Both the position numbers and the translations under genes were made by a program. A model generated the notes under the pieces. That model did not search any database. It was not told the origin of the DNA and worked only from the letters and a program-made list of their open reading frames with translations. 64,000 bases of DNA from an uncultured Verrucomicrobiae bacterium (lineage in GTDB: Bacteria > Verrucomicrobiota > Verrucomicrobiia > Chthoniobacterales > JAFAMB01). The DNA lies in the NCBI GenBank assembly GCA_963762565.1, contig CAVXLD010000003.1, positions 96,001 through 160,000 of the forward strand, given 5' to 3'. Below are positions 2,094-64,000 of the stretch, in pieces (position 1 is the first letter of the stretch; every line of letters begins with the position of its first letter).

Positions 2094-4034
2094 ATGAACT
2101 TTGGCGAACTCCCTTCCGAAGGTGATCATCCGGCTAACCCCGGCCGCAGCAGCCGCCGCGAATTTCTCGGTCGGACCATTCGCGGCGGAGCCCTGTTTGC
2201 TGCTTCCTCGGTCCTCGGAAAAGAGGCTTCCTCACCTGAAGAACGGACTAAGTCTCAACAGACCGATTTAACTCAAGACCGGTCTCGGCCGGCTGGCGCA
2301 ACCACCGCTGATCTTTTGGTCGAGAAGTTAGTTGAATGGGGTGTACAGGTGGTTTTCGGCCTCCCCGGCGATAAGATTGCGCACGTCATGGACGCAATCC
2401 GGCGGCGCCAAGACGAAATTCGCTTCATCCTGGTCCGTCATGAAGAAGGTGCTGCTTTTATGGCGGGTGGTTACGCGAAGGTTACGGGTAAGTTGGGCGT
2501 TTGCCTCAGCACAGCAGGCCCGGGAGCAGTGCACCTACTCAACGGGCTTTACGATGCCAAATTCGATGGAGCTCCGGTCTTGGCCATCACCGGCGCGCCG
2601 CCTCGCGCGCTATTGGGCACCCGATTTACGCAGGGCGTGGATACGATCAGCCTGTATGAAGACCTCACGAGCGGAGTTTACAACGAACTGATTACCAGTC
2701 CGTACCATTTGCTTTTGGTCGCGGACACTGCGCGCCGCGCTGCCCTCGCGTATCGAGGGGTAGCTCATCTCAGTTTTCCTATCGATGTACAAACCAAACG
2801 GCTTGCTGATGACGACGAATCGCTTGGCGCGGATGTGCAGCCGGCCTCGGCGTCGAGTTGGGTGCCACAGGTCGAGGCGCCCGCACCCGATGCGGTCCGG
2901 GCAGCCGCCGATTTGCTCAACGCCGGACGCCGTACCGTCCTTCTGGTTGGTCAAGGTGCACTCGGGGCGACCAAGGAGGTAGAGGCCGTCGCAGCCCGCC
3001 GGGCCGCGCCGGTGGCCAAAGCGTTTCTTGGTAAAGCGGTCATTTCCGACTCTTTTCCGTACTCCACGGGCGGCATCGGAGAGTTTGGCACCACGGCTTC
3101 ATCCGCAGCCATGCGGGGCTGTGATACTTTGCTCATCGCCGGCTCAACTATGCCCTGGTTACACTACTACCCCAAGCCCGGACAGGCTCGCATTGTGCAA
3201 ATCGACCGTGACCCGACGCGCCTCGGGCTGCGTGCCGCCGTTGATGTTGCCATCGTGGGCGACGTGCGTCGGACGCTGGCGGATTTGCTGCCGCTCTTAG
3301 AGCCGCAAACAGATCGCACTTTTCTTGAACAGATCCAAGCCAAGATGAGCGAATGGAATGAGGGATTGCATCGGATCGAGACGAGTTCAAAACTGCCGCT
3401 CCAACCGCAATTTGTGGCGCGTCAGTTATCAGAGCTGCTCGCTCCCGATGCCATAATTACCTGCGATTGCGGAGCTAACACGTTCTTTGCTGCCCGCCAT
3501 ATCTCCATGGTGACAACCCAGAAACTGGTAGCTGGCGGAAACCTCTCCACCATGGCGTGTGGACTCCCTTTTGTGATCGGCGCACAATTCGCCTATCCGC
3601 AGCGGCAGTGCGTCGCCTTCGTGGGGGACGGCGGCTTTACCATGTTGATGGGAGAATTCGCCACCGCAGTAAAGTATAAGCTTCCGATTAAGGTGATCGT
3701 GCTGAAAAACGATCACTACTCACGGATAGTTAGCGAGGATCAGACACTCGGTATTCCACCGTTCGGAACTGAGCTACAACCAATTGACTTTGTCCGATTC
3801 GCCGAAGCCTGTGGAGGCGCCGGTTTCGCCTGCGCGCGGCCGGAAGAGGTGCGCCCTGCGCTTGAGGCGGCTTGGCGCATCGCGGACCGGCCGGCATTGG
3901 TGGAGGCGACGATCGACAACGACGCAGATGTATCTCCGCCGGATGAATACCTTTCGAGAATCTTAAAAGGCACTTCGTTCTCGTCCTCGTCGTCGTCCTC
4001 GTCCTCGAATCCGACACGCGGAGCGATGGAGTGA
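2094..4034 (+). CDS. thiamine-pyrophosphate enzyme, pyruvate oxidase/PoxB-like, with N-terminal twin-arginine-like segment
   Basis: VFGLPGD, VRHEEGAAFMA, AGPGAVHLLNGLYDA and the TPP motif GDGGF...KND; start moved to ATG 2094 because ATG 1887 lies inside a repeat. Confidence 0.88.
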   Translation: MNFGELPSEGDHPANPGRSSRREFLGRTIRGGALFAASSVLGKEASSPEERTKSQQTDLTQDRSRPAGATTADLLVEKLVEWGVQVVFGLPGDKIAHVMDAIRRRQDEIRFILVRHEEGAAFMAGGYAKVTGKLGVCLSTAGPGAVHLLNGLYDAKFDGAPVLAITGAPPRALLGTRFTQGVDTISLYEDLTSGVYNELITSPYHLLLVADTARRAALAYRGVAHLSFPIDVQTKRLADDDESLGADVQPASASSWVPQVEAPAPDAVRAAADLLNAGRRTVLLVGQGALGATKEVEAVAARRAAPVAKAFLGKAVISDSFPYSTGGIGEFGTTASSAAMRGCDTLLIAGSTMPWLHYYPKPGQARIVQIDRDPTRLGLRAAVDVAIVGDVRRTLADLLPLLEPQTDRTFLEQIQAKMSEWNEGLHRIETSSKLPLQPQFVARQLSELLAPDAIITCDCGANTFFAARHISMVTTQKLVAGGNLSTMACGLPFVIGAQFAYPQRQCVAFVGDGGFTMLMGEFATAVKYKLPIKVIVLKNDHYSRIVSEDQTLGIPPFGTELQPIDFVRFAEACGGAGFACARPEEVRPALEAAWRIADRPALVEATIDNDADVSPPDEYLSRILKGTSFSSSSSSSSSNPTRGAME

Positions 4035-10774: not shown

Positions 10775-10856
10775 CGCCCCTTCGGGGCGGACGTTTTTTT
10801 CGTCGATACCCGGGGTTAAAACCCCGGGCTGAGTTCTATAGTCCCTTTGGGACAAA
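10775..10856. repeat. palindromic REP-like repeat (family H)
   Basis: cccggggttaaaaccccgggctgagttctatagtccctttgggacaaa; reverse-complement relative at about 60424-60470, partial copy at about 20045-20065. Confidence 0.6.
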
Positions 10857-46144: not shown

Positions 46145-47320
46145 TCAGTCCTCCCAGGGAAGGCCAACATAATTTTCGGCCAACGCGGTGGCTGCGGCAG
46201 AGGACGTTGTCAGATAATCTAACTCTGCTAACTGGCGTTTATATTCGAACGCATCATTATGATCGAACCGGTGCATCAGGCTGGTCATCCACCAGGAAAA
46301 CCTCTGTGCTTTCCATACTCTTCGCAGACAACGGTTAGAATAGGAATCCAATAGAGAGCTCTGGCCTTTTTGGTAGAAACTGACCAGAGCTCGGGCTAAC
46401 AACCAAACATCACCGACGGCAAGATTCATACCCTTAGCGCCGGTGGGCGGAACTACATGAGCGGCATCGCCCGCCAGAAATAAACGGCCGTATTGCATCG
46501 GTTCGGCAACAAAGCTTCTCATCGGGGTCACACTCTTCTGAAGAATCGCTCCGCGCCGGACGCGTTTGTCTCCGGGAAACGCGAGGCGCTTTTCGAGGTT
46601 CTCCCAGATCCGGTCATCGGACCACAGCGATAAATCTTCATCCGGGCGGCACTGAAGGTAAAGCCGGGTAATTTTCGGCGATCGCATGCTGAAAAGCGAA
46701 AACCCGTCCTCATGATTTGCGTAGATCAGTTCTTCCCAGCTCGGCGCCGCTTCCGCCAATATGCCCAACCAGGCAAACGGATAAGTCTTCTCAAAGAAGG
46801 TTAGTGTCCCGTGCGGAACTGCTGTTCGCGACACGCCGTGAAACCCATCGCAACCGGCGATCCAATCACAAGTGATCTCCTGGTTCTGTCCTTGATAACG
46901 AAAACTGACTCTGGGTTGGTTGGTCGCGGTCCCGTGGAGAGCAACCTCCGTCACCTCGAAGAAAATCTGGCCGCCGCGACTAATGCGGGCTGCGATCAGA
47001 TCTTTTACCACTTCGTGTTGCCCGTAAACCATGATTGCCTTCCCCGTAAGACTCGTGAAATCAATCCGGTGAAGCCGACCGGAAAACCCCAGGTTAATTC
47101 CTCCATGCGGCATCGCTTCTTTTTTCATTCGGTCTCCAATCCCACAGTCAGACAGGAGCTGCGCTGTCCCATGCTCGAGCACACCCGCCCGGATGCGCGA
47201 CTCAACGTACGAGCGGCTTTTATCTTCCAAGACGATCGATTCTACGTTCTCCAGCGAAAGCAGGTGGGAGAGTAGTAGTCCTGCAGGTCCGGCTCCAATG
47301 ATCGCGACTTGTGTGCGCAT
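46145..47320 (-). CDS. pobA: 4-hydroxybenzoate 3-monooxygenase
   Basis: GAGPAG, RIRAGVLE, VYGQ, GDAAHVVPPTGAKGMN, AENYVGLP. Confidence 0.96.
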   Translation of the reverse strand: MRTQVAIIGAGPAGLLLSHLLSLENVESIVLEDKSRSYVESRIRAGVLEHGTAQLLSDCGIGDRMKKEAMPHGGINLGFSGRLHRIDFTSLTGKAIMVYGQHEVVKDLIAARISRGGQIFFEVTEVALHGTATNQPRVSFRYQGQNQEITCDWIAGCDGFHGVSRTAVPHGTLTFFEKTYPFAWLGILAEAAPSWEELIYANHEDGFSLFSMRSPKITRLYLQCRPDEDLSLWSDDRIWENLEKRLAFPGDKRVRRGAILQKSVTPMRSFVAEPMQYGRLFLAGDAAHVVPPTGAKGMNLAVGDVWLLARALVSFYQKGQSSLLDSYSNRCLRRVWKAQRFSWWMTSLMHRFDHNDAFEYKRQLAELDYLTTSSAAATALAENYVGLPWED

Positions 47321-47494
47321 ACGCCAGCTCGCCTGAGGCTCGCTGCCGAAATAGCAAATAGCAAATAGCAGATAGCAAAAGAGGCGCCCGAACTATCGGG
47401 CGCTGGTTGGCGGATCAATTTGCTATTTGCTATCTGCTATTTGCTATTCGGGGACGAGCTTCGGGTAAGTAGTGAAACATGTTATCAGTAGGTA

Positions 47495-47905
47495 TTATCT
47501 AGAGTCTGGCGCCGCCGAGTCGGTCGGACCCAATCTCTCTGCGATCACTTCTTCAGCAGCGTGAATTGCTGCGTTCGCGCCGGGTAACCCGCAATAGATG
47601 CCGGCGTGAAGCAGAAGTTCGCGGATTTCTTCAACGATTACCCCGTTATTTAGGGCCGCTCGAATATGCATCCGAAACTCTGGTTCGCGATTAAGAGCCA
47701 CTAACATTGCGAGCGTGATCAGGCTGCGTTCGCGGCGAGTTAACCCTGGCCTTTCCCAGATCTCGCCCCAGGCATACCGGGTAATAAACTCCTGGAACGG
47801 CCGGTTAAAGTCGGTCAGTTTCGCGTCCGCACGCCGAACATGCTCATTTCCGAGAACCGCGCGCCTGGTCTTTCGGCCTTGGTTGTAACGCTTTTTTTCG
47901 TCCAC
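47495..47905 (-). CDS. pcaC: 4-carboxymuconolactone decarboxylase
   Basis: RRAVLG..HV, FQEFITRYAWGEIW, AGIYCGLP. Confidence 0.93.
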   Translation of the reverse strand: MDEKKRYNQGRKTRRAVLGNEHVRRADAKLTDFNRPFQEFITRYAWGEIWERPGLTRRERSLITLAMLVALNREPEFRMHIRAALNNGVIVEEIRELLLHAGIYCGLPGANAAIHAAEEVIAERLGPTDSAAPDSR

Positions 47906-47906
47906 G

Positions 47907-47963
47907 TTAATGATCCTTCAATAGAAAATCCAAGACGGCGCTGGCGAAGCCACGGTTATGCAT
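47907..47963 (-). pseudogene. probable internally deleted pcaD relic (18-aa mini-ORF)
   Basis: GGAG RBS; MHNRGFASAVLDFLLKDH between pcaB and pcaC. Confidence 0.5.
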
Positions 47964-49323
47964 GCTTCTTCTCCGGATCGGGTCGCTGGGACGTTAGGCG
48001 CAACACCCGGTTAATAAACTCATCCGCAGCGCCAAGCGCGTTCTCGGGAAGAAAGATCCGGTCAAGTGAATTTTGATCCAGCCATTTGGTGATGCTCGGA
48101 TCCTGTACCAGGACCTCATGCAAATGCAGCTCTTTCTGCTTGGCGCGTTGGCAGGCCAGCTTGATCACGCGATCGGCTTCCGGTTTGCCGACATACTGCG
48201 CCAGGCGAACCGAAACGTCTTCAGCATAAACCAACCCGTGCGTCGCATCGATATTCTCGCGCATTCGAGCTGCATCAATTTTTAAGCCGGAGAAAAGAGC
48301 ATTCGCATTTTGAACAGCTCCGCCGGTTAAACGGAGCATTTCGGTCAGCGGCCCCCATTCGCTATGCCAATGACCAACGGCTCGTTCATGTTCCTGCACC
48401 ATCGAAGCCGCCATCGTAGCCAGCAGCCCTGGAATCCGGGTGCAGGCGGCGATGATCATTGTCGGCGCGATCGGATTTCTCTTGTGCGGCATGGCTGAAG
48501 AACCGCCCTTGCCCTCGCCGCCTTCTTCAACTAACTCGCCGACCTCGGTCTGCATCAACAGCGCGGCGTCCATTGCAATCTTGTTCAGGCAGCCGGCCAG
48601 CATAGCCAGGCTCGCTGCAATCTCGAGTAACCGATCACGGGCTGTGTGCCATGTGATGACGGGTTCGGCCAGTCCCAAGCGTTCCGCCAGTCTGGTCAAC
48701 ACCGCTAACCCTCGGTCCCCGCTCGCGGCCAGCGTACCTACGGCGCCGCCGAACTGTAGAACTGTCGCAGACGTGCGCGCTCGCCTGAGATGTTGTCTGC
48801 AGCGGATCAGCTGATCGAGCCAGCCGGCGACTTTGAATCCAAAAGAAATTGGGCGGGCCTGCTGGAGCAGGGTCCGGCCTATCATCACGGTTCCCCGGTG
48901 TTCGCCTGCGAGGCCCGCCAGCCGGTCCTGCAAACGGCCCAAACCATTGTCTAACACGAACAGTGCCGCCTTGAGCTGCAGCATCTCTGCGCTGTCGATG
49001 ACATCTTGACTGGTGGCTCCAGCGTGCACATGATGTGCCGCTGCTCCACCGGTTTCGCCAGTTTCGCGCACCAGGGCGGTTAATTCTTTCACCAGGGGAA
49101 TGGCGGGGTTACCTGCATTTTTGGCTGCGGCGATAATCTTTTGTTGGTCGATTCGGGCCTCGTCGCATACGCGGGTGATCAGACTTGCTTGCTCAGCAGG
49201 AATCAATCTAACGTCCGCCTGCGCCTGAGCGAGAGCCGCTTCGAACCGCAACATCGCTCGGATGATCGCTTCATCCGTCAAGAGCGCCTCGATTTCGGAG
49301 TCCGTGAATAGTTGATCGAACAT
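47956..49323 (-). CDS. pcaB: 3-carboxy-cis,cis-muconate cycloisomerase
   Basis: HAGATSQD, GRTLLQQA, GSSAMPHKRNP. Confidence 0.93.
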   Translation of the reverse strand: MFDQLFTDSEIEALLTDEAIIRAMLRFEAALAQAQADVRLIPAEQASLITRVCDEARIDQQKIIAAAKNAGNPAIPLVKELTALVRETGETGGAAAHHVHAGATSQDVIDSAEMLQLKAALFVLDNGLGRLQDRLAGLAGEHRGTVMIGRTLLQQARPISFGFKVAGWLDQLIRCRQHLRRARTSATVLQFGGAVGTLAASGDRGLAVLTRLAERLGLAEPVITWHTARDRLLEIAASLAMLAGCLNKIAMDAALLMQTEVGELVEEGGEGKGGSSAMPHKRNPIAPTMIIAACTRIPGLLATMAASMVQEHERAVGHWHSEWGPLTEMLRLTGGAVQNANALFSGLKIDAARMRENIDATHGLVYAEDVSVRLAQYVGKPEADRVIKLACQRAKQKELHLHEVLVQDPSITKWLDQNSLDRIFLPENALGAADEFINRVLRLTSQRPDPEKKHA

Positions 49324-49341
49324 AACGGCCGTGAAAGGCTC

Positions 49342-49935
49342 TCAGAAATCGAAGAAGACGGTTTCACCCGGGCCCTGCAGAATCACGTTCCACACGTAGG
49401 AGTTCGGATCGGAAACTTCGGGTCGAGCAAAAAGGGTGGAGCGGCGTGCTGGCTCGATCAATTTCACTATTTCATCGGTGTTATTCCGCTCGTCTCCCAG
49501 GAAATAAATCCGCGTAACTAAGCGATCGAGTAATCCCCGCATAAAGATCGACACATTGATATGGGGTGCTTGTGGGACCCCGGTCGACGAAGGCACCGGA
49601 CCCGGTTTAACGGTGCGGAATATGAAAGTTCCATCCGGGTCTGTTGGACACCGGCCGAAGCCGCTGAACCCTGGTTCGAGCGGTTTATCCTGCTCGTCTT
49701 CCGGGTGAACATATTTTCCGAAACTGTTCGCCTGCCAAATCTCAATCACTGCATCCGGCACGGGCAATCGATCCGCATCCAGGATCCGGCCCTGCACTGT
49801 GATGATGGTCCCGGCTACACCAGGAACTGTGAGGTCAGTCTGGTAAAGATCCTCAAAACCAATCTCGAAGAATGGACCGACTGTTTGCGAGGCTGCGAGT
49901 AGCAGTAGTGCATTGCCCGGAGCGCGATCGGTCAT
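49342..49935 (-). CDS. pcaG: protocatechuate 3,4-dioxygenase alpha subunit
   Basis: SQTVGPFF, EIWQAN, QAPHI, ETVFFD. Confidence 0.95.
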   Translation of the reverse strand: MTDRAPGNALLLLAASQTVGPFFEIGFEDLYQTDLTVPGVAGTIITVQGRILDADRLPVPDAVIEIWQANSFGKYVHPEDEQDKPLEPGFSGFGRCPTDPDGTFIFRTVKPGPVPSSTGVPQAPHINVSIFMRGLLDRLVTRIYFLGDERNNTDEIVKLIEPARRSTLFARPEVSDPNSYVWNVILQGPGETVFFDF

Positions 49936-50642
49936 GGGCGGTTCTCCATCGGAGTGGCAAGTCGACCCCGCAATACGATGTCAAATTTGAAACTGAGCGC
50001 CTGCTCCGGGATGGTGGTCTGCCAGTCAAAGACCGAGATTAACCGTTGCCGGGCGGCTTCGTCGCGGATGCCGTTGAAAATTGGATCGAAAGGAATCAGC
50101 GAATCCCCCGGAAAATACATCTGGGTTACAAGGCGGGTAGCGAAAGCGGGACCAAACAACGAAAAATGAATATGAGCCGGACGCCATGCATTCGGATGAT
50201 TCCGCCACGGGTACGCGCCTGGCTTAATGGTAAAAAACTGATAGCGGCCTTCGTCATCCGTGATGAGCTGCCCTTTGCCGATAAAATTTGGGTCCAGCGG
50301 CGCGTCATGCTGATCGACGCGGTGCCGGTAGCGTCCGGCTGAATTGGCCTGCCAGATTTCAAGCAGCGTATGGGGGAGTGGTCTCCCGTCTTCATCGAGG
50401 ACTCTGCCCGAGACCAGGATCTTCTGTCCCAGAGGAGGGGCATCGCCGTGCAGGGTTAAATCGGCGCCAGCCTTAAGCTGATGCGCTTGGAAGCGCGGAC
50501 CGGTGACCTCCGAAAGAGTCTGCGGGATAGGTACCAGCGGCTGGCTGGGCGCACGTTTAACCGAAGAGATATAATCCGGGTGGAGATGGGGTGGGTGAAC
50601 GCCGAGAACAGGTTTTCGATAGGGACGAAGCGGGGTAAACAT
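49932..50642 (-). CDS. pcaH: protocatechuate 3,4-dioxygenase beta subunit
   Basis: GRYRH, PGAYPWRNHPNAWRPAHIH. Confidence 0.96.
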   Translation of the reverse strand: MFTPLRPYRKPVLGVHPPHLHPDYISSVKRAPSQPLVPIPQTLSEVTGPRFQAHQLKAGADLTLHGDAPPLGQKILVSGRVLDEDGRPLPHTLLEIWQANSAGRYRHRVDQHDAPLDPNFIGKGQLITDDEGRYQFFTIKPGAYPWRNHPNAWRPAHIHFSLFGPAFATRLVTQMYFPGDSLIPFDPIFNGIRDEAARQRLISVFDWQTTIPEQALSFKFDIVLRGRLATPMENRP

Positions 50643-50658
50643 GGTCGTAAGCTCGGAT

Positions 50659-50673
50659 GTTCGTTAAACGAAC
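50659..50673. promoter_or_regulatory. PcaR-type operator upstream of pcaH
   Basis: GTTCG-TTAAA-CGAAC. Confidence 0.7.
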
Positions 50674-50990
50674 GCCTGTACGATAGCCGCCAAACAGGCT
50701 GCGGCGTTCTCTCCTACCTGTCAAACGCGAAATATCGCATACCAATCTGCCTGTGCAGTAGATAATGCACAGGAAATGATCGGCCCAAGATCCGGGAGGG
50801 CGCGTGTCCCCGCGCGCTGGGAAGGCGGTGCAACAGATGAGGCGTCGATTAACCCTGGGTTTGGGAGACGCCGGGCTTCGCGAACGGCGGATCGCGAGGA
50901 TCCGCCGTCGCCTAGATTGCGTCCCATTATTTCCCTGTTCGTGCAGGCTATGGCGGACAGGCAGCGATCCCTCCACGATGGCCGACTACC

Positions 50991-51821
50991 TCAACCAAGA
51001 TGGCCGAGACAGGAAGAAATATTCTTGGCGGCTCTCTGTAGAATCGGCAGGAATTGCTGCAAGAGTTCGGTTTTAGACGTACGCGGCGCCTGAGTGCCAA
51101 TATTGATCGCAGCCACCGCTTTGCCGCCTCTGGAAAAAATCGGTACCGCTAACGAACGCAGGCCTATTTCCAATTCCTGGTCCACTAACGCGTATCCCTG
51201 GCGGGCAACAGTCTTCAACTCTTTGCGCAGCAGCTCGGGCTGGCAAATGGTCCGTTCAGTGAACCGGCTGAGGACGGCGATTTTGAAATAGTGTTCGAGC
51301 GCTTCCGGCGGCAAGTTAGCCAATAGAGCTCTGCCCATAGAGGTACAGAACGCGGGCAGCCGGCTGCCAATGCCTATGGATACAGACATGATGCGCCGCG
51401 TTTGGACCCGAGCGACGTAGACAATGTCCTGGCCATCCAAAACCGATGCCGAGGATGATTCTTTCGTCTCGTGGGTGACTTCTTCGAGGAAACGCTCCGC
51501 GATCTTGGGCAATGAAAACGAGGAAAGATAAGCGAACCCAAGATCGAGAATCTTAGCGGTGAGTCGAAAATATTTTCCATCGGTGGTGACATATCCTAGT
51601 TGCACCAGCGTGTATAAGAAGCGCCGGACGACAGCGCGCGCCAAGCCGGTTCTCTCTGCGACTTCGCTCAAGGTCAACGCGTCCGGATCACGCAGGCTAG
51701 ATCGAGCCTGCGGTTTGAGGTCTTGGACACCGAACGCTTTGATGATTTCAATTCCTCTAGCCAGTGAAACGACAAAATCGGGGGTAGCAGCAAAGGATGG
51801 AGGAGAGGTCTGCTTGGGCAC
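50991..51821 (-). CDS. pcaR: IclR-family regulator (PcaR/PobR type)
   Basis: FVVSLARG, GLARAVVRRFLYTL, GSRLPAFCTSMGR, DQELEIGLRSLAVP. Confidence 0.9.
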   Translation of the reverse strand: MPKQTSPPSFAATPDFVVSLARGIEIIKAFGVQDLKPQARSSLRDPDALTLSEVAERTGLARAVVRRFLYTLVQLGYVTTDGKYFRLTAKILDLGFAYLSSFSLPKIAERFLEEVTHETKESSSASVLDGQDIVYVARVQTRRIMSVSIGIGSRLPAFCTSMGRALLANLPPEALEHYFKIAVLSRFTERTICQPELLRKELKTVARQGYALVDQELEIGLRSLAVPIFSRGGKAVAAINIGTQAPRTSKTELLQQFLPILQRAAKNISSCLGHLG

Positions 51822-51866
51822 GTATCTAGAGGTTGTTCTGGATCCCGTAGACCGAGCGGCCGGGCC

Positions 51867-51881
51867 GTTCGGTATTCGAAC
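51867..51881. promoter_or_regulatory. PcaR-type operator upstream of pcaR
   Basis: GTTCG-GTATT-CGAAC. Confidence 0.6.
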
Positions 51882-51954
51882 TTAGGAACCCCTTTTTCTT
51901 AGTTGAACCGGGGGCTCGGAGCAATCGAAAAGCGAGGTCTCCTGGCGCCTTGGC

Positions 51955-52009
51955 TTGACAACCTGGGCGGCCCGAATACGATTTTCGGACAACTGTTCGT
52001 TATACGAAC
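51955..52009 (+). promoter_or_regulatory. pcaIJ promoter with a PcaR-type operator
   Basis: TTGACA (51955-51960), 16 bp, TACGAT; GTTCG-TTATA-CGAAC at 51995-52009. Confidence 0.65.
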
Positions 52010-52018
52010 GGTAGCGGC

Positions 52019-52173
52019 ACAGAAAATTTCTTACAGAAGCTAACGAAGCAAACAAAGGGCTAAGGTGACAGGTTTCTGCGCCACTTTTGACCTCTTTCCT
52101 TCGTTATCTTCGTTACCTTCTGTAGAGAACCTCTGTCTTGTGGCCTTTGTGATCTTCTGTAAAAAAGATTCTT
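52019..52173 (+). repeat. ~155-bp direct repeat, copy 1
   Basis: Highly similar to 53124-53279. Confidence 0.85.
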
Positions 52174-52271
52174 GGGACGCAAATGCCGACCCGCAAGCAT
52201 CGACCTGCTTATGACGAAGCCCCATTTTCCGCACCCAATCTCAAGTGGGCGTTACTCATCTCCTGAGTACC

Positions 52272-53093
52272 ATGGCTAAAATCCTCCCACTGGCCGACGC
52301 GGTCGCGGAACTAGTCAACGACGGCGATCGGGTGGCTTGCGAAGGATTCACCCACCTAATTCCGTTCACAGCCGGACACGAAATCATCCGGCAACAGAAA
52401 AAGAACCTGACCCTGGTCCGTCTGACACCGGACCTCATTTACGATCAAATGATTGGGATGGGGATTGCAGCCAAATTGGTGTTCTCCTGGGGAGGTAATC
52501 CGGGCGTGGGTTCTCTTCACCGCCTGCGCGACGCGGTAGAACAACAATGGCCGGCAAAGCTTGAGATCGAAGAGTTCAGCCATGCCGGCATGGTACAAGC
52601 CTACAGTGCCGGTGCGGCCGGTTTACCTTTTGGAATTCTCCGCGGATTTACCGGAACGGATCTACCTAAAGTGAATCCGAAGATTAAGTCTATCACCTGT
52701 CCCTTTACTGGTGAGATCCTGGCAGCGGTTCCTGCCATTAGGCCCGACGTTGCCGTGATCCATGCTCAAAAGGCCGATCGGGAAGGCAACGTCCTGATCT
52801 GGGGAATTATCGGAGTGCAGAAAGAAGTCGTGCTCGCTTCCAAACGCGCGATCGTGACTGTCGAAGAAATTGTTGACCGGCTTGAGCCGCCTCCAAACGC
52901 CTGCGTATTACCGAGTTGGGTGGTCTCGGCGGTTTGTTTGGCTCCAGGAGGAGCGTATCCGTCGTACGCGCAAGGTTATTACGAGCGGGACAACCGCTTT
53001 TATCAAGCGTGGGATGAGATCAGCAGGTCACGCGAAGAATTTCTGAGCTGGATGAAGCTCAACGTCCTGGCAGGTTCCGCAACACCCAAATAA
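52272..53093 (+). CDS. pcaI: 3-oxoadipate CoA-transferase subunit A
   Basis: EGFTHLIPF, FSWGGNPGVGSLHR, PSYAQGYY; pca cluster context. Confidence 0.88.
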   Translation: MAKILPLADAVAELVNDGDRVACEGFTHLIPFTAGHEIIRQQKKNLTLVRLTPDLIYDQMIGMGIAAKLVFSWGGNPGVGSLHRLRDAVEQQWPAKLEIEEFSHAGMVQAYSAGAAGLPFGILRGFTGTDLPKVNPKIKSITCPFTGEILAAVPAIRPDVAVIHAQKADREGNVLIWGIIGVQKEVVLASKRAIVTVEEIVDRLEPPPNACVLPSWVVSAVCLAPGGAYPSYAQGYYERDNRFYQAWDEISRSREEFLSWMKLNVLAGSATPK

Positions 53094-53123
53094 AGCACAC
53101 ACAAACCACAGAAGGGCACAAAG

Positions 53124-53279
53124 ACAGAAAATTTTTCACAGAAGCTAACGAAGCAAACGAAGGACTGAGGCGAGAGGTTTCTGTGCCACTTTTGACCTCT
53201 TTCCTTCGTTATCTTAGTTACCTTCTGTAAAGAACCTCTGTCTTTGTGGCCTTTGTGATCTTCTGTAAGAAAGATTCTT
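53124..53279 (+). repeat. ~155-bp direct repeat, copy 2
   Basis: Ends immediately before the AGGAG RBS of pcaJ. Confidence 0.85.
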
Positions 53280-53284
53280 AGGAG

Positions 53285-54067
53285 ATGGACTACACAGCAG
53301 ACGAGATTATGACGGTTTCGGCGGCGCGAATGCTTCGGGACCAGGCAGTTTGTTTCGTCGGGATCGGGCTTCCCTCGAAGGCCGCTAACCTGGCCCGACT
53401 AACCCATGCTCCTGACCTTGTCCTGATTTATGAATCCGGGCCGATCGGCGCCAAACCCTCGGTTCTTCCTCTCTCGATCGGTGACGGCGAACTTTCGGTG
53501 ACAGCGGATACGACGGTTTCGACCGGTGAGATTTTCAGCTTCTGGCTCCAGGGCGGAAAAATTGATGTTGGATTCCTCGGCGCCGCCCAGATTGATCGAT
53601 TTGCAAATATCAATACTACGGTAATCGGGAGCTACGAGCATCCGAGGGTTCGATTGCCCGGCGCGGGCGGTGCTCCGGAAATCGCGGGTTCAGCCGGGGA
53701 GGTTTACCTCGTGCTAAAGCAGGCCCGCAAGACGTTTGTTGAACGCCTGGATTTTGTGACCTCGGTTGGTCATGGAGACGGTGGCGACTATCGGAAGCGC
53801 CTCGGCTTGCCAGGAAAAGGTCCGGTTGTAGTCATCACCGACCTTGGAATTTTTTGTCCAGATCAGAACACGCAGGAACTAACCCTTGCGAATATTCACC
53901 CGGGCCAGGAAATCGACGAAATTCGCGCAAGAACGGGCTGGGACCTGAAAATATCGGAGGATCTACGGTTAACTCAGCCACCAACCGAAGAGGAACTGGC
54001 TGTGCTGCGGGAACTTGAGCGTCGCACGGCGGAGGCGCACGGTTTGAGAATAGCAAATAGCAAATAG
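53285..54067 (+). CDS. pcaJ: 3-oxoadipate CoA-transferase subunit B
   Basis: FVGIGLP, LIYESG, GAAQIDRFANINTT, RLPGAGGAPEIA. Confidence 0.88.
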   Translation: MDYTADEIMTVSAARMLRDQAVCFVGIGLPSKAANLARLTHAPDLVLIYESGPIGAKPSVLPLSIGDGELSVTADTTVSTGEIFSFWLQGGKIDVGFLGAAQIDRFANINTTVIGSYEHPRVRLPGAGGAPEIAGSAGEVYLVLKQARKTFVERLDFVTSVGHGDGGDYRKRLGLPGKGPVVVITDLGIFCPDQNTQELTLANIHPGQEIDEIRARTGWDLKISEDLRLTQPPTEEELAVLRELERRTAEAHGLRIANSK

Positions 54068-54258: not shown

Positions 54259-56436
54259 ATGTCACGTTGTCGGCCGGTGGCGCGACGTTTTTCCCTCGGT
54301 CGCGCTTTGGGAGTCTTAGCAGCCTCTATGTTGGCTGTTAGCAGTTTGATGGTTTCGGCATTCGCCGAGAATAATGGTGTTTCTCTGGCGCCTCAGCTAG
54401 GATGGAGCAGTTGGAGCTTTGTCCGAAGAGGCCCGACGGAAGCGATCATCAAAGCGCAGGCTCTGGCAATGCACCAGAATCTGCAATCCAGCGGGTTTCA
54501 ATATGTCAATCTCGACGATTTCTGGTACCTAGATCCGCGGGTCACGGTGGACGCTTACGGTCGTTGGGTTCCTGATCCCATAACATTCCCGGACGGAATG
54601 GCGGCGCTCGGCGCCTACATTCATAGCCTGGGACTGAAATTCGGGATGTATATCACGCCTGGTATTCCCGTGGCCGCCGTTAAGGCGAATACTCCGATTG
54701 AAGGCACTCACTATACGGCCAAAGACATCGCCGATGTTCCCCAATATGAGATCAATTACAATTTCGGCAACGTTAACTATTATATCGACTTCACCAAGCC
54801 GGGAGCACAGGCATTCATTGACTCCTGGGCTAAACTTCTTGCGTCTTGGGGTGTCGACTACATAAAATTGGACGGGGTAGGAACTTGGGATGTCCCCGAT
54901 GTGATTGCCTGGTCGCAAGCGCTAAATAAGAGCGGGCGAGAGATTCATTTTGCTCTTTCTAACTCGCTCAGTCTGAATGCGGCGACCACTTGGGAAGCGT
55001 ACGCCAATAGCTGGCGTATCACTGGCGACGTTGAGTACTATCACAGTTCGGTTTATCCGCTGACAAGTTGGAGTAAAGTCCTCAATCATTTTCAGTCAAT
55101 GCCGCAGTGGACTGCGTTTTCGGCCCCTGGCCGCTGGCCGGATCCGGATTCATTAGAGATCGGAAACGGGTCACTGGACGGAATAAATTCGGACGGCAGC
55201 GCGTTCACGCAAAACGAACGGCAAACGCTGTTCAGCTGGTGGTGTGTTACGGCAGCGCCCCTCATACTAGGAACTGATCTGACCAGTAATACCGATTCCT
55301 ACGATTACTCCTTGCTACATACTAGTGAGGTGATCGCGGTTGATCAGGCGGGGGTCCAGGCAGCTCCGGTGGTGGATTATTTGAATAGCGATCCGAATGG
55401 GACTCAGCCTGAAACCTGGCGGGCTAAGGAAGCTGACAGCAGTTTCGTCGTTCTGGCATCCAATCCGTCAGGAAATACGCAGACCGGGACAACCGTTTGG
55501 TCGCTCTTTGGCATCCCAGGACCGGTAATGGTCCGCGACCTCTGGAACGGAGTTAACCTCATCGGAACCCCAAATGAGGATGGCGGATACCAAATTCCGG
55601 GTCCGCTGCCTTTCAGCCTTTCGGCATATCAGAGCCAGCTCCTAAAGGTGACGCCTATGGCGCCGATAACGCAATATCTGGTGAACGGCCCGAATTCGCA
55701 GCTGCTGGGTTCAGCTGTGTATGCGCAAGCCAATACTTGCAGCGACGGTACCAAGGCAAGCTACATTGGAAATGGGGGATCGATCGTATTCGGGAATGTT
55801 TATGCAGCAAAGGCCGGCACCTACACCCTCTCGATTCTGTATTTCACAGATCCGGCTCGCCCCAGCACAATCAGCGTTAACAATGGAGCGGCGGTGACCG
55901 TAACGTTTCCTAGCACCGGCTCTTTTTCGACGCTTGGGGCGATCACTCAGCCGGTGCTGCTCAACGCCGGCTACAATACGATAACGATTTCCGGGTCTGG
56001 CGGTTCCTACGCGCCTGACATCGATTCGATCACGGTCCCAGCAACCACCACTCAGTACCTGGCAGACGCGGCGAAATTTACCGGCAAGGACGTCGCAATC
56101 GTCGCCTCGCCTGAGGGCACCGACGGAAAGAAACTCTCGGTTAGCCAAGGAGGCAATTACACGGTTACGTTTGACGTGTCCATTGCCAGCGGTGGAGCTC
56201 ACTCACTGTTGATATTGTATCTCTCCGGGTCGGCGGCATCGGCTGATATCAAAGCCAGTTCATCAAAAGCGGTGGTTGTGAATTTTCTTTCGACGAGCGG
56301 CAATCCGGGAAATTCGGATGTCGTTGGCGTAGCCAATGTAAATCTGGACCTCCGGCAGGGTTCGAATACGATCACGATTTCTTCGGTTTCCAAAGAGACG
56401 GCTCCTGACCTTGATTCAATCATCGTGGTCGAGTAG
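54259..56436 (+). CDS. secreted GH27 alpha-galactosidase-like protein with C-terminal CBM35/CBM6-like modules
   Basis: LGWSSW, YVNLDDFW, WGVDYIKLD, SWRITGD, WPDPDSL, APLILG; two beta-sandwich repeats ending APD(I/L)DSI. Confidence 0.88.
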   Translation: MSRCRPVARRFSLGRALGVLAASMLAVSSLMVSAFAENNGVSLAPQLGWSSWSFVRRGPTEAIIKAQALAMHQNLQSSGFQYVNLDDFWYLDPRVTVDAYGRWVPDPITFPDGMAALGAYIHSLGLKFGMYITPGIPVAAVKANTPIEGTHYTAKDIADVPQYEINYNFGNVNYYIDFTKPGAQAFIDSWAKLLASWGVDYIKLDGVGTWDVPDVIAWSQALNKSGREIHFALSNSLSLNAATTWEAYANSWRITGDVEYYHSSVYPLTSWSKVLNHFQSMPQWTAFSAPGRWPDPDSLEIGNGSLDGINSDGSAFTQNERQTLFSWWCVTAAPLILGTDLTSNTDSYDYSLLHTSEVIAVDQAGVQAAPVVDYLNSDPNGTQPETWRAKEADSSFVVLASNPSGNTQTGTTVWSLFGIPGPVMVRDLWNGVNLIGTPNEDGGYQIPGPLPFSLSAYQSQLLKVTPMAPITQYLVNGPNSQLLGSAVYAQANTCSDGTKASYIGNGGSIVFGNVYAAKAGTYTLSILYFTDPARPSTISVNNGAAVTVTFPSTGSFSTLGAITQPVLLNAGYNTITISGSGGSYAPDIDSITVPATTTQYLADAAKFTGKDVAIVASPEGTDGKKLSVSQGGNYTVTFDVSIASGGAHSLLILYLSGSAASADIKASSSKAVVVNFLSTSGNPGNSDVVGVANVNLDLRQGSNTITISSVSKETAPDLDSIIVVE

Positions 56437-56890: not shown

Positions 56891-58963
56891 ATGAATGCGA
56901 CCGAATTGAACGTAAACGAGTCCGTCTCAGGAGCTGAAGAAACGGTAAGGCCGACGCCTGAGGGATTAATTCTTGCCGAAATTACAAACACCGTGACGCA
57001 GTTTAATGTCGAAGACATTCTGCAACGGCTGAAAGCCTTCGCCCAGAGTCTGAAGCAGCATCCTAAATCGTCACGGGACCACGCCGGCGATGTAGCCCTG
57101 CCGACCGTGGGAATTATTGGGATGGGCCGGTGCGGAACGAATATCGCCATCGACCTGGCCAATCTGGTGTACGAACAACGGAAGATTGGAATAAAAGAAC
57201 TATCACGTCGTGGGCGCGCCATGGCAAAGCGCCAGTCGCCCGCTGAGAAAAGATCGGAATCAAGCCATACTCGATCTGCCAACGGAAAAGCGGACGCGCC
57301 TTCATTCTGGGAACGCCTCTTTGGAGAAAAATCTGATCGTGATCAGGTGTTTCTGGTCGACCCAGTCATTCTCACGGCCGACCTGGACGGGGATACCACG
57401 CAAAGAATCAAGGTGGCGAATCCGACGCTTACCCAAGGCGCGCTCAGGTTCGGGATCACGGAGCTCGATTGGCTTAACCGGGGCGGTGCTGGCAATATCC
57501 CCGTCGTAGGACATTATTTGGCGACCTTGGCGCTCTTGGCCGAGGCAAAACCTGAAACGCCTTGGGCTCGCCACCGGAGCTACCTCGTCGATTCTTCCGG
57601 GTTGGCGGCCAATGCCTCCCGCCTTTTTTTCTATCTATTTAGCGCGGGCGGCGGATCGGGATCCGGTATGGCGCCGGTGTTTGGCCGGGCTCAACAACAA
57701 GCCCGAATGGTCAACGTAAAGCGGCAACGCCCAACCGGGCAGTCAACGCGGGAATATACAGAGGCGCTGTGCAGCGTTGGTGTCGCTGTTCTTCCGGATA
57801 TTTTGAGGACCGCGCATTCCCAGCATTACAACGCTGGCCGCCTTTTGTGCGAGTACTTGGCTTCGCTGAATCGCTTCGAACAAAGCTTCGATCCCGCGAC
57901 GGGCATGCCGCTACCGACATTTAATTGTTTGTTACTGGTGTCGAACACGGTGGTTCATCACGCGCTTGGTGAACGCTTTTCTTCCGAAATATACGCGGTC
58001 AAGGCTGAGCAGCTCGCGAACAAATATGTGGCTCGGCAACTCTTTAACCTGCTGACCGCACAAGCGTTGGTCGAAGATTATCGGATCACGGATCCAAAGG
58101 TAATTCCCGCAATGAATGCGGCAGGCATCAGTCTCGATGATACGACGAAGCTTGATATTAACGACTTGGAGAATTCGTTAAGCGGCACAGCCGTGATTGG
58201 GTACGCCGAGCAATTCGGGCATGAAGATTTCGGACAGCTGTTCCTGCGAGCGGTTTCTCCTGCCTCGTATAATTCGGACAATGAAGTTTTTGAAGGTATT
58301 AGCCTGCTTCCAAACAAATTTGAGGATTACCAGGCGACAATCGAGGCCTGCCGCAAGAATAACTCGATCGAACAGCTGCGAGACTTGGCCTTGTTTGGAA
58401 AAGCTTTGTCCGTAGTCGCAATTGTGTCGGCTCCACGGTCAGAACTATTTGAGCAATACAATCTTCGCAAGGTGCATGAAAATATAGAATCGCTTTTTCC
58501 GAACGCGACGATCAAGCGTTATGCGCTCATCTTGGGTGCTTCGGAGAATTGTTCCTTGACCCTGATTATTTCCGGCAGTGCATGTCTGGTGCCGGACGCG
58601 TTGTTTGCCATTCGAAATTATATCTTTGGTTGCTTCGTCGCCGACAACGGGCAACAGGAGCGTTTCACGCAGGTATTTAACCAACTTATGTCGAACCGTC
58701 AGTTTGAGCCTGGCGAGTTGGCTTCGATGCTGCGAGACAAAGAATCGCTAGACCCGATCATTGTGGGTATGGGCAGCCAAGGAGCCTGGCGCCGGCGGAA
58801 ACAAGAATTGGAATTGAGAGCTCAAAGCTTAAACCCGCGCAATGTCCCAAATAGTGCGCCGCCAGTAGTCGTAGAAGATGTTCTGCTTTCGAGACAGGAG
58901 GTAATCGACGCGTTGGAGTACATACATAGGGTGAGCAGTTTCCATAGACCGGTGACGGTTTAG
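56891..58963 (+). CDS. divergent tubulin/FtsZ-superfamily GTPase
   Basis: T1 IIGMGRCGTNIA, T3 GGAGNIPVVG, T4 FSAGGGSGSG, T5 GVAVLP, T6 LLVSN, T7 KLDINDL, followed by AVIGYA. Confidence 0.85.
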   Translation: MNATELNVNESVSGAEETVRPTPEGLILAEITNTVTQFNVEDILQRLKAFAQSLKQHPKSSRDHAGDVALPTVGIIGMGRCGTNIAIDLANLVYEQRKIGIKELSRRGRAMAKRQSPAEKRSESSHTRSANGKADAPSFWERLFGEKSDRDQVFLVDPVILTADLDGDTTQRIKVANPTLTQGALRFGITELDWLNRGGAGNIPVVGHYLATLALLAEAKPETPWARHRSYLVDSSGLAANASRLFFYLFSAGGGSGSGMAPVFGRAQQQARMVNVKRQRPTGQSTREYTEALCSVGVAVLPDILRTAHSQHYNAGRLLCEYLASLNRFEQSFDPATGMPLPTFNCLLLVSNTVVHHALGERFSSEIYAVKAEQLANKYVARQLFNLLTAQALVEDYRITDPKVIPAMNAAGISLDDTTKLDINDLENSLSGTAVIGYAEQFGHEDFGQLFLRAVSPASYNSDNEVFEGISLLPNKFEDYQATIEACRKNNSIEQLRDLALFGKALSVVAIVSAPRSELFEQYNLRKVHENIESLFPNATIKRYALILGASENCSLTLIISGSACLVPDALFAIRNYIFGCFVADNGQQERFTQVFNQLMSNRQFEPGELASMLRDKESLDPIIVGMGSQGAWRRRKQELELRAQSLNPRNVPNSAPPVVVEDVLLSRQEVIDALEYIHRVSSFHRPVTV

Positions 58964-59061: not shown

Positions 59062-59793
59062 TTAGGCCACGAGATCTTCGTCCCATTTTTCGGCTGTTAC
59101 CGGCACCTTCCCAGCGATCAAGTCTGCGAATGCGAGCAAAGTTTTAAGCGCATCACCGACTGGATAGTAGAAGGCGTCCCAATGCTCGCTGTCTTCGCCG
59201 TCGTGGTTTGGGATGACATAATCGAAATGCCAAGCGTCTTTCAATTCGGTGTATGCGCTTGTCGCGCGGCGTTCGATGTTTTCGAGATCCTTCAGGGACA
59301 AAGTCCCTTTTTGCCGTTGGGTGCGCCGCAACAGCTTGTGACGCATCACATCGGTCAGAAAATCCGGCAACGAGACGTTGCGTGATTTCAAAAATACGAT
59401 CTCCGCGCGCGACAGGGGCGAGAGAAAAACGGTCAGCAGATTCACTTTTGCCGTCAGCGCTTCCTGCAGTCTCCGCCCGACAAAAGGATTGCCCTCGAAA
59501 AAGAGCTCGCCCGTCGCAGAGGCCCGATCGAGATCACTTAAATCGACGGCTTGCAGGTCTCCTCGCACATCAAGAACAATAAAATTTTCTCGTTTGCGGA
59601 AGGTTTCGATTTCTTCTCGCGGTCGGAACCAATAGTCTTTGCCATCGATTTCGCCGGGTCGGGGGGAACGACAATTGTAAAGCACGAGCTTGCGCAAACT
59701 CGCGGCTGATTCGGGATAAAATTTTAAGAACGCGTGGTGAAGCGGGCCTTTGCCGACACAGGACGGACCGGAAAGGATAATGAATCGTCCCAT
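59062..59793 (-). CDS. guanylate-kinase-like P-loop kinase
   Basis: LSGPSCVGKG, RSPRPGEIDGKDYWF, VFLSP, FDYVIPN. Confidence 0.8.
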   Translation of the reverse strand: MGRFIILSGPSCVGKGPLHHAFLKFYPESAASLRKLVLYNCRSPRPGEIDGKDYWFRPREEIETFRKRENFIVLDVRGDLQAVDLSDLDRASATGELFFEGNPFVGRRLQEALTAKVNLLTVFLSPLSRAEIVFLKSRNVSLPDFLTDVMRHKLLRRTQRQKGTLSLKDLENIERRATSAYTELKDAWHFDYVIPNHDGEDSEHWDAFYYPVGDALKTLLAFADLIAGKVPVTAEKWDEDLVA

Positions 59794-60402: not shown

Positions 60403-60964
60403 GTCCTATAGTCAGGGAGGTTTTTTGTCCCGAAGAGACTACAGGACTCAGCCTGGGGTTTTAACCTGGCTAAAGCCCTGGGTTACGCGATTAACAAATG
60501 CGCCCTGAAAGCACTTCCAACCCCGCCTTATCGGGGTGCAATTCGGGGAGGGCGCGTCCTCGCGCGCCGCGAGGACGTGCCACCACCAAGCGGCCTATTT
60601 TCTTCCGGGATCAAAACACGCCCCCGGTTTCGGTCACGATCCGGCAGGTGCCGGGCGAGGACGCGATCCCTCCCGCCTCGTGCGCCTTCAGCATCTCCAA
60701 CCCCGCGTCCGCGGGGTGCTTTTCGGACTTGGCGCAATACTCCAATACTCCAACACTCCGCGTGGCCGGATTCGAGGACAGCCTGTCCGCCGTAGCCTAG
60801 AGGCTCCATGTTGCCAACCGCTCGAAGTCGGCCTCGCAAGCGAGGCGCGCTCCACAACCAAGGAGTCGGCGAAGGCGGAAGGACGAGAACGAACGAAGCG
60901 GGAAGATAATGTCTTGGGAAATTTGAAAGAATTGCTCCAGATTGTGTCTATTCCGTAGCGATCC

Positions 60965-61417
60965 ATGAAAGACAAACTCATCATCGTCGTCGATCTTGGT
61001 CTAGTCAGGGCGTATCGAATTGAGCTGAGTCCACAGCGAACTCCGCGCCTACAACAGCTCCAGCAGGTGGTGCTGGATGAGGCGCATAGCCGGATAAAGG
61101 ATCGAGTCACGGATTTTGCGGGCAGACATGGATCACCAACGCAAAAAAGTCGGAGTGCGCCAAAGGCGGATGACCAAAATCTTAAGCTCGAATCCAAACG
61201 ACGTCTGATTCGTCAGATTGCTGTCAGGATCACCCAGATCATCCAGCAGAATGCCAAGAACGGATGTTGGTTGGCTGCGCCGAAGGAAATCAATTTGCAA
61301 ATACTGAACGAATTACCTCCGGCGGCCCGAGAGCGGATCCAGAAGACTGTGCCATGTGATTTTACCAAGCTTAGTCCCGCGGAGGTGCTGGAACACTTTC
61401 TGGAACGGACTGTGTGA
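60965..61417 (+). CDS. host-attachment (AtsE-like / release-factor-fold) family protein
   Basis: LIIVVD..RAY, VTDFAGR, WLAAP, DFTK. Confidence 0.7.
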   Translation: MKDKLIIVVDLGLVRAYRIELSPQRTPRLQQLQQVVLDEAHSRIKDRVTDFAGRHGSPTQKSRSAPKADDQNLKLESKRRLIRQIAVRITQIIQQNAKNGCWLAAPKEINLQILNELPPAARERIQKTVPCDFTKLSPAEVLEHFLERTV

Positions 61418-61865
61418 CGAGCGTCCGCTCGTCACGTGAGAAGTGAGAGGTGAGAAGTGGGGGGTTGCAAAATCGTTCTCATCCTCGTCGTCGTCCTTCC
61501 GCCTTCGCCGACTCCTTGGTTGTGGAGCGCGCCTCGCTTGCGAGGCCGACTTCGAGCGGTTGGCAACATAGACCGTTGGCTACGGCGGACAGGCTGTCCT
61601 CGAATACGCGTCCCAGCTTCAAACGCATTGAATTTCCCCAGGTCCATTCCCAGCGCGCCGTCCTGGGTTCGTACCGTGGGAAGAACGGATTTTTCGAGGA
61701 CGAGGACGACGACGAAGGACGAGGACGATTTCGGCCTATTACAGGCCTCAAAAGCTGCTGACATAGGGCTGTCATCGTGGCCCTCTACTGTGGCGAAGCG
61801 AGCGATTGGACGGGAATAAATAGCCCCAGTCGTTCGTATAACACCTTGAGGATCAGGAGACAGCC

Positions 61866-63698: not shown

Positions 63699-64000
63699 CG
63701 GTTGGCTGTCGTCCTCGTCCTTCCGCCTTCGCCGACTCCTTATTGAGGAGCGCGCCTCGCTTGCGAGGCCGACGTAGAGCGGGTGGCGATATAGAGAGTG
63801 GGCTATGGCGGACAAAGCTGTCCTCGAAAAGACGTGCCGCGTTGATCCTCCGAGCGTGTCCGCGAAGCCGCGACCTGGAGGGGAGCCGCTTTGTAAGATG
63901 GCAGGTCTAGATTGTTGGCAGCCACCGAAAGCCTTCGGGGTTAGACAGGCGGCTCCCGGGAATAACCCAGCGTACCATTTGTACCCAACGCTACCTGACC

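Follow-up and report, generated by a model that had tools for sequence, protein, structure and literature searches.

The stretch of DNA analysed here, called the window below, comprises 64,000 nucleotides (nt) from an uncultured Verrucomicrobiae bacterium (contig CAVXLD010000003.1, positions 96,001 to 160,000), and the subject of this report is one of its genes, an open reading frame (ORF) on the + strand that starts with ATG and encodes a protein of 690 amino acids (aa). An earlier note, made from the letters of the sequence, had described the product as an orphan and divergent member of the tubulin/FtsZ superfamily with an apparently intact GTPase. Based on homologue searches, structure prediction, phylogeny and the comparison of gene neighbourhoods, we place the protein, with high confidence, in FtsZl2, a family defined in 2010 (Makarova and Koonin, 2010; PMC2875224), and we propose that it may assemble into GTP-dependent protofilaments.

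The ORF is a genuine gene, on which purifying selection acts strongly. About 36 full-length homologues at 78-97% identity were found by protein search in metagenome assemblies of the Chthoniobacterales/Verrucomicrobiota type, and the start MNA... is common to the window protein and these orthologues. The pairwise ratio of nonsynonymous to synonymous substitution rates (dN/dS) between the window gene and the orthologous loci L001-L003 is 0.07-0.085, at dS 0.6-1.6; a fourth locus, L004, was omitted as truncated. The N-terminal extension and an internal insert hold most of the substitutions, with an identity of 0.75-0.76 to the orthologues. The identity is 0.95 in the GTPase core and the C-terminal domain, and the S1-T1-H1 segment is fully conserved. 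The GC content is uniform along the locus, promoter and terminator scans of the flanks gave counts at or below shuffle expectation, and the Rfam scan found no family near the gene. All the motifs listed in the earlier note were recovered where it had placed them, and both of its nucleotide ranges are exact.

The features of the gene and its product are collected in Table 1. Conservation was counted over 41 full-length proteins (at least 560 aa) among 150 listed 50%-cluster representatives, with fragments dropped. Loops T1-T6 occur in the canonical order, and according to the family alignment and the 41 representatives, T1, T4, T6, T7 and helix H7 are all kept in the family; the GTPase loops and the T7 DxxD pair, earlier judged intact, are thus both present and conserved. 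Residue 256 in T4 is T in 28 representatives and S in 13. In the AlphaFold model, a strand (294-301) and a helix (310-332) frame the T5 region, where VLP occupies aa 300-302 and HYNAGRLL aa 312-319, while AVIGYA is found at aa 433-438, after T7. The DLD triplet is a candidate T2 loop, on account of its position after S2 in the model and of the tubulin motif. For the tubulin/FtsZ superfamily, the joint conservation of an acidic T7 and the nucleotide loops is what is expected for trans-activated hydrolysis across the longitudinal interface. The T1 loop (GxCG), the acidic DLD after S2, the T4 signature GGG[ST]GSG and the YNA-type T5/H5 motif are features that we take to be nearer to tubulin than to FtsZ.

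Table 1. Features of the FtsZl2-like gene and its product (positions refer to the window; counts such as 41/41 refer to the full-length representatives)
Feature	Residues (aa)	Position	Strand	Basis
Coding sequence of FtsZl2-like tubulin/FtsZ-superfamily protein		56891..58963	+	ORF list, orthologues, dN/dS; stop codon 58961-58963
N-terminal extension: disordered head, then helices 23-37 and 40-53	1-68	56891..57094	+	AlphaFold model; helices align across the family
GTPase (nucleotide-binding) domain, strand S1 to helix H7	69-392	57095..58066	+	Foldseek matches to FtsZ/CetZ/tubulin; sub-threshold PF00091 in 15/20 members
T1 loop, GMGRCGTNI	77-85	57119..57145	+	G82 41/41, C81 40/41, G79 40/41
Family-specific charged disordered insert between H1 and S2	96-155	57176..57355	+	pLDDT <50 at aa 114-154; net charge +7
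DLD after strand S2, candidate T2	164-166	57380..57388	+	D164 41/41; D166 33/41, N in 7
T3 loop, GGAGN	198-202	57482..57496	+	G199 41/41, G201 40/41
T4 signature, GGGSGSG	253-259	57647..57667	+	G254, G255, G257, G259 41/41; PF00091 and hhalign matches centred here
S5 end, T5 loop and H5 start, VLP...HYNAGRLL	300-319	57788..57847	+	P302, G316, R317 41/41; N314 38/41
S6 end and T6, LVSN	349-352	57935..57946	+	N352 41/41, S351 40/41
Core helix H7, with ANKYVARQL (376-384)	365-391	57983..58063	+	Long helix in model; N377 41/41
FtsZ/tubulin-type C-terminal domain: T7, H8, mixed alpha/beta sheet	402-565	58094..58585	+	C-terminal half modelled alone
T7 loop, LDINDL, with DxxD acidic pair	421-426	58151..58168	+	D422 40/41 (else E); D425 39/41 (one E, one Q)
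C-terminal helical extension	566-690	58586..58960	+	Helices 568-582, 586-601, 608-613, 632-647, 668-683, mostly high pLDDT

Predicted fold and family membership

The AlphaFold model of the protein, built with 20 family sequences, has a mean predicted local distance difference test score (pLDDT) of 76.5 and a predicted template modelling score (pTM) of 0.82. When the model was compared with the PDB by Foldseek, at least 500 matches were obtained at E<=1e-3, and all those listed are FtsZ, CetZ, tubulin or TubZ. The best of the listed matches is the M. jannaschii FtsZ (1w59_A, E 6.4e-11), and the target-normalised template modelling (TM) scores are 0.75 for CetZ2 (4b45_A) and 0.76 for S. aureus FtsZ. 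The tubulin matches have target-normalised TM scores of about 0.56-0.60 and root-mean-square deviations above 10 A over about 610-630 alignment columns, which reach into the C-terminal helices. Against BFVD, there are 8 matches at E<=1e-3, which are either named phage tubulin/FtsZ or nameless, and PhuZ comes at rank 10 (E 4e-3).

The C-terminal half (aa 402-690) was modelled separately, because no similarity was found for the C-terminal region of about 300 aa in the 2010 paper (PMC2875224). With 25 sequences, this model has a pLDDT of 78, and all its listed matches (ranks 1-50) are FtsZ, tubulin or CetZ, the best being Aquifex FtsZ (2r6r, E 7e-5); it aligns over about 150-165 columns with FtsZ and up to about 290 with tubulin. 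Since the C-terminal half alone retrieves FtsZ and tubulin, the two-domain fold is predicted to be complete in this protein, with additional helices at the C-terminus. The modelled fold thereby goes a small step beyond the published description of FtsZl2, and the tubulin-like fold for which the earlier note had proposed structure prediction with Foldseek is borne out, with both domains matching FtsZ, CetZ and tubulin.

Extensions of about 70 aa at the N-terminus and about 130 aa at the C-terminus, as well as the charged insert, had been pointed out before, and all are seen in the AlphaFold model. The first core strand begins at aa 73, and the last beta strand (555-561) is followed by about 129 aa that are helical; in this C-terminal extension W633, K637, E641 and Y677 are conserved in the 20-row family alignment. 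The insert contains 15 K/R versus 8 D/E. Within this otherwise variable segment lies a short aromatic/basic amphipathic motif, PSFWERLFG (aa 137-145, 57299-57325), an equivalent of which is present in all 20 rows of the family alignment, with counterparts such as RWIKRSL, SFMERL, SFIQRLF, NFISRFF and MFRWIV in the relatives. The motif may act as a helix that targets the protein to the membrane, or else as a docking peptide.

When a family profile was searched against 1.84 billion cluster representatives, only 179 proteins were reached at E<=1e-3, of which many are fragments. Had the canonical FtsZ or tubulin families been within reach, they would have swamped such a result, and therefore the family is a closed, isolated sequence group. 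The HMMER check proposed in the earlier note had a divided outcome: PF13809 has no match and PF00091 stays below its threshold in the window protein, but weak PF00091 matches occur in 15 of the 20 family members (best E 3.1e-5). In the same Pfam scan the window protein has no FtsZ_C or CetZ_C match, the NCBIfam scan found no model for the FtsZl2-like family, and the PADLOC scan returned a chance-level match only. A protein search started from E. coli FtsZ listed nothing below 98% identity to it.

Within this group, relatives are numerous. The gammaproteobacterial matches, from Agarivorans, Shewanella, Aeromonas and SAR86, have E-values of 1e-79 to 3e-85 and cover 89-95% of the query at 31-33% identity; with the betaproteobacterial proteins included, the range is 29-33%. 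At least 568 genome stretches encode relatives when one genome per species is scanned, of which 80 loci were kept for the locus analyses: 75 from Pseudomonadota, 4 from Verrucomicrobiota and 1 from Saprospiraceae. The Pseudomonadota loci come from Pseudomonas and its allies, Alteromonadales, Psychromonas and Laribacter, and the genera overlap with the published FtsZl2 list, including Pseudomonas, Psychromonas and Laribacter. A cluster look-up, which assigned taxa to two of ten relatives, identified one Geminicoccaceae protein and one Bacteroidota protein. Consequently, the description of the gene as an orphan holds as far as partner genes are concerned, but not with respect to homologues, in view of these stretches and of E-values of about 1e-80 to proteobacterial proteins.

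The definition of FtsZl2 was based on PFL_1302, of Pseudomonas protegens/fluorescens Pf-5, together with eleven further proteins of gamma- and betaproteobacteria, and T1, T4, T6, T7 and H7 are all conserved in it, unlike in FtsZl1 (Makarova and Koonin, 2010; PMC2875224). In supplementary file 2 of that paper, the published FtsZl2 rows read the same as the proteobacterial rows of our 20-row alignment at three places, i.e., T1 with its flanks, GGAGNAPI-LGQYLAK, and the block around GGGTGSGMASEFGLAQQ. The published rows thus match those of the proteobacterial homologues, and therefore the window protein is taken to be a divergent FtsZl2 member; we regard this identity and the tubulin/FtsZ fold as very probably correct. 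The little-studied lineage to which the earlier note had tentatively assigned the protein does exist and is uncharacterised, but it is not a new one, having been named FtsZl2 already in 2010 (PMC2875224).

A maximum-likelihood (ML) tree was built from 54 rows (42 proteins and 12 loci), for which the remaining 68 loci, fragments and near-identical proteins from Verrucomicrobiota were omitted; the tree has no outgroup, and its midpoint root is for drawing only. A clade of 8 rows, supported at 100/100, unites the window protein with metagenomic proteins and the Saprospiraceae locus. As judged from these sequences, the window protein belongs to the wider FtsZl2 family and lies outside the classical proteobacterial subclade. 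Some of the relatives carry additional domains. For example, P0052 (29% identity) contains a KGGVGR-type AAA fragment, then TIR, and then the FtsZl2-like module, and P0056 and P0087 have an XRE-type helix-turn-helix (HTH) at the N-terminus. In the tree, P0052 is found in a third 100/100 clade, and P0056 adjoins the proteobacterial clade. These additional domains, TIR and HTH, are a hint that signalling or immune outputs can be driven by the module. For the window protein itself, longer fused forms were searched for and not found, which is weak evidence.

Gene neighbourhood and other features of the window

Upstream of the tubulin-like gene, at a distance of 454 nt, lies a gene for an alpha-galactosidase with CBM domains (54259-56436), and downstream lies a convergent guanylate-kinase-like gene (59062-59793, - strand). 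The guanylate-kinase-like protein has 243 aa, which is presumably longer than a typical Gmk, and the Pfam model Guanylate_kin matches only its N-terminal 70 aa. Both neighbours recur on verrucomicrobial contigs, and in the window, L001 and L004 the guanylate-kinase-like gene and the tubulin-like gene converge; L003 has neither of the two neighbours. This gene was considered as a functional link and rejected, because it is common only to near-identical verrucomicrobial contigs and absent in L003. No fts, mur, btub, bklc, phage or plasmid genes are present in the 64-kb window, in agreement with the earlier remark that the gene lacks an ftsA/ftsQ/mur context and a btubB/bklc partner, and the remaining window encodes ordinary metabolism, including a protocatechuate/beta-ketoadipate cluster.

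The comparison was extended to 76 neighbourhoods, i.e., the window and 75 loci, after five loci had been dropped where the gene was not recovered by ORF clustering. Neighbours are common only within genera, and none is common across clades. With the 454-nt gap upstream and the convergent gene downstream, this makes the window gene a unit by itself. In Pseudomonas, genes for RapA, an MFS transporter and an MHYT-GGDEF-EAL protein lie upstream and a DUF2288 gene downstream; the neighbours are ETF and ETF-QO in Alkalimonas and Rheinheimera, sucCD and pfk in Agarivorans, acetyl-CoA synthetase and a pseudouridine synthase in Colwellia, and an RDD protein and LptF/G in Alteromonas. The same outcome was published for FtsZl2, whose genes are not associated with other genes (PMC2875224). 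Small ORFs flanking the Pseudomonas genes (clusters 8, 46, 148 and 50) were tried as partners and rejected, with Arg/Ala/Ser/Pro-rich translations and no Pfam match; they are probably artefacts of a simple ORF caller on GC-rich DNA. In the betaproteobacterial locus L041 (Laribacter sp.), a phage-integrase-family gene (2640-3794) lies two genes upstream of the FtsZl2 gene; no other marker of a mobile element came up among the neighbours that were scanned against Pfam.

Elsewhere in the window, three copies of a repeat of about 125 nt lie between genes (60767-60892, 61485-61608 and 63709-63814) and flank a Host_attach/baeRF-family-12 gene (60965-61417). One pair is inverted, with 97% complementarity over 88 nt, and the repeat looks like a repetitive extragenic palindromic (REP) or miniature inverted-repeat transposable element (MITE) type of element. 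The Rfam small RNA motif Acido-Lenti-1 was found above its gathering score at 1675-1719 (-), 1863-1907 (+) and 10809-10854 (+), with 46.4, 43 and 37.2 bits, respectively. The protocatechuate/beta-ketoadipate-type cluster spans 46145-54067 and includes a FAD-dependent hydroxylase, an IclR regulator, CoA-transferase A and B subunits, gamma-carboxymuconolactone-decarboxylase-like and lyase-like ORFs, and two dioxygenase subunits, the decarboxylase, lyase and dioxygenase names being taken from the translations alone.

Proposed assembly and alternative readings

Taken together, we favour, with moderate confidence, the view that the window gene, from a verrucomicrobial genome of the Chthoniobacterales type, encodes a stand-alone protein of the FtsZl2 branch, which would assemble into protofilaments in a GTP-dependent manner. 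For polymerisation taken by itself, the conserved residues and the modelled fold tip the balance slightly in its favour. In the proposed mechanism, the N-terminal domain (T1-T6 and H7) would bind GTP, as its conservation and fold suggest, and the subunits would associate head to tail, so that T7, with D422 and D425, enters the nucleotide pocket of the next subunit. The inserted aspartates would complete the active site and switch on hydrolysis, and the outcome would be dynamic, GTP-dependent protofilaments. Tethering, regulation or bundling of the polymer may be the task of the additions that are specific to the family: the hairpin of helices at the N-terminus, the charged insert that contains the SFWERLF-type motif, and the bundle of helices at the C-terminus. 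The cellular role is probably not septation.

Several points weigh against this proposal. The PF00091 match of the window protein scores 19.4 bits versus a cutoff of 33 and covers the T4 region only; PDB chains searched by sequence, with the single protein as well as the family profile, gave nothing relevant; and in the hhalign comparison of the family alignment with E. coli FtsZ, nothing but the T4 loop was aligned, at a probability of 3.9%. As for the assignment to FtsZl2, the comparison with the published family was a reading of printed alignment blocks, not a scored alignment to PFL_1302, and a tight 100/100 proteobacterial clade of 15 rows stands separate from the clade of the window protein. 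As for assembly, the large inserts could block the standard longitudinal contacts, and two publications caution that divergent FtsZl families may not form FtsZ-like filaments (PMC2875224; PMC3160578).

That published caution (PMC3160578), the strong divergence from all characterised polymerising families, and the long inserts along with about 200 aa of additional structure at the two termini would all suit a GTP-binding switch, or a regulated small oligomer, built on a tubulin scaffold. Such a protein would not polymerise, and its T7 loop would act in a closed dimer or be structural only. However, both T7 aspartates are near-invariant along with all the nucleotide loops, and the C-terminal domain that bears the lower interface is kept; we consider this explanation rather unlikely.

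In a more far-reaching scenario, FtsZl2-like proteins would form an autonomous, single-gene module for GTP-driven polymerisation in at least three phyla, with a tether of its own (the SFWERLF-type motif and the C-terminal bundle), wired to TIR (NADase-type) or HTH outputs in side clades. Polymerisation would then be a switch in signalling or immunity and not a cytoskeleton, and the window protein would represent the ancestral, effector-less scaffold. We put this forward as a speculation of rather low probability.

The TIR fusion of P0052 and the XRE-type HTH of P0056 and P0087, as well as the patchy spread over Verrucomicrobiota, Bacteroidota and Pseudomonadota, could also be expected of a conflict or defence component, in which the tubulin-like module, by analogy with STAND NTPases, would be an NTP-driven platform that senses an invader and oligomerises. 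However, the window protein lacks an effector domain and has no notable PADLOC match, its surroundings are those of ordinary metabolism with no mobile or defence genes in the 64-kb window, the synteny in Pseudomonas and Alteromonadales is of a stable, genus-specific housekeeping kind, and the TIR-fused forms fall in a different deep clade. Consequently, a defence role appears improbable.

A DNA-segregation or positioning tubulin of the TubZ/PhuZ kind, left by an integrated plasmid or phage, is very improbable: phage tubulins and TubZ are indeed among the structural matches, but FtsZ and CetZ outscore TubZ and PhuZ, the GC content is even, and neither a tubR/tubC-like partner nor phage or plasmid genes are found in the 64 kb. 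That the protein is the highly diverged divisome FtsZ of the organism is hardly credible, since, although verrucomicrobial FtsZ has been reported as unusually divergent in a 2023 phylogeny (PMC9871819), there is no dcw/ftsA/ftsQ context and no FtsZ_C domain, the classical relatives are found in Pseudomonas, Alteromonadales and Laribacter, and FtsZl families typically coexist with a conventional FtsZ (PMC2875224).

GTP-dependent assembly of a stand-alone FtsZl2 protein is the reading that we favour, and few branches of the tubulin/FtsZ superfamily are as divergent as FtsZl2. The function of FtsZl2 was given as unknown and its distribution as proteobacterial in a 2011 review (PMC3160578), and no experimental follow-up since 2010 was found in the searchable literature, by full text with the family names and locus tags. 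The literature on newly described bacterial tubulin homologues likewise yielded nothing relevant, and the 2023 phylogeny excluded divergent 'FtsZ-like' sequences, which it describes as having a Tubulin_2 domain (PMC9871819). What is new here is that FtsZl2 extends beyond Proteobacteria to Verrucomicrobiota and Bacteroidota, that its 'unknown' C-terminal region is predicted to be a regular FtsZ/tubulin second domain with added helices, that its GTPase and T7 residues are as constrained as those of known polymerising relatives, and that some relatives are fused to TIR or HTH. The question that results is whether a partner-less tubulin homologue polymerises, and what for; the Pseudomonas homologues are tractable for genetics.

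Comparison with known systems

The closest known system is FtsZl2 itself. The window protein resembles it in length (about 650-760 aa in the family), in the motifs GxGRCG, DLD, GGAGN, GGG[ST]GSG, NxGR, SN and LDxxDL, in the variable insert between T1 and T4, in a C-terminal region of about 300 aa that is alpha/beta and has no coiled coil, and in the lack of conserved neighbours, and it matches proteobacterial proteins over the full length at E of about 1e-80. It differs from the published members in its identity of 29-33%, its separate 100/100 clade with Bacteroidota and metagenomic sequences, its verrucomicrobial host, in a family described as restricted to Proteobacteria, and its T4 sequence, GGGSGSG instead of GGGTGSG.

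With FtsZ and CetZ, the protein has in common the predicted two-domain fold (target-normalised TM up to 0.76), the T1-T7 order and the acidic T7. However, it has no detectable sequence similarity to them beyond T4 and no FtsZ_C or CetZ_C match in Pfam, and compared with FtsZ, it lacks the dcw (division and cell wall) context and the C-terminal FtsA/ZipA-binding peptide, and is about 350 aa longer. Eukaryotic tubulin and BtubA/B also have the fold in common, with the longer structural alignment of about 610-630 columns, but the target-normalised TM is about 0.56-0.60, there is no match at the sequence level, and the window gene is a single one, with neither an A/B pair nor bklc.

FtsZl1, described in the same 2010 paper (PMC2875224), is likewise a highly divergent GTPase domain of the tubulin superfamily (Tubulin_2, PF13809). 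However, in FtsZl1 there is a coiled coil, the C-terminus is alpha-helical, T6-H7 is not recognisable, and the gene lies in operons with vWA, GTPase and OmpA genes; none of this applies to the window protein, whose C-terminus is predicted to be a globular alpha/beta domain and which has no PF13809 match. In the tubulin-containing conflict systems of Kaur et al., the links are to vWA and GTPase genes, in the manner of FtsZl1 (PMC7159879), and these systems do not belong to the FtsZl2 family.

Without FtsZ_C, dcw genes, a btub pair, bklc or a plasmid or phage context, the protein is distinct from canonical FtsZ, BtubA/B, TubZ and PhuZ, as the earlier note had held. TubZ and PhuZ are plasmid- or phage-borne and have adaptor or centromere partners, unlike the window protein, and their structural scores are weaker than those of FtsZ and CetZ. 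What the window protein has in common with them is the tubulin-like fold, and TubZ and PhuZ are themselves single polymer-forming genes that do not serve septation.

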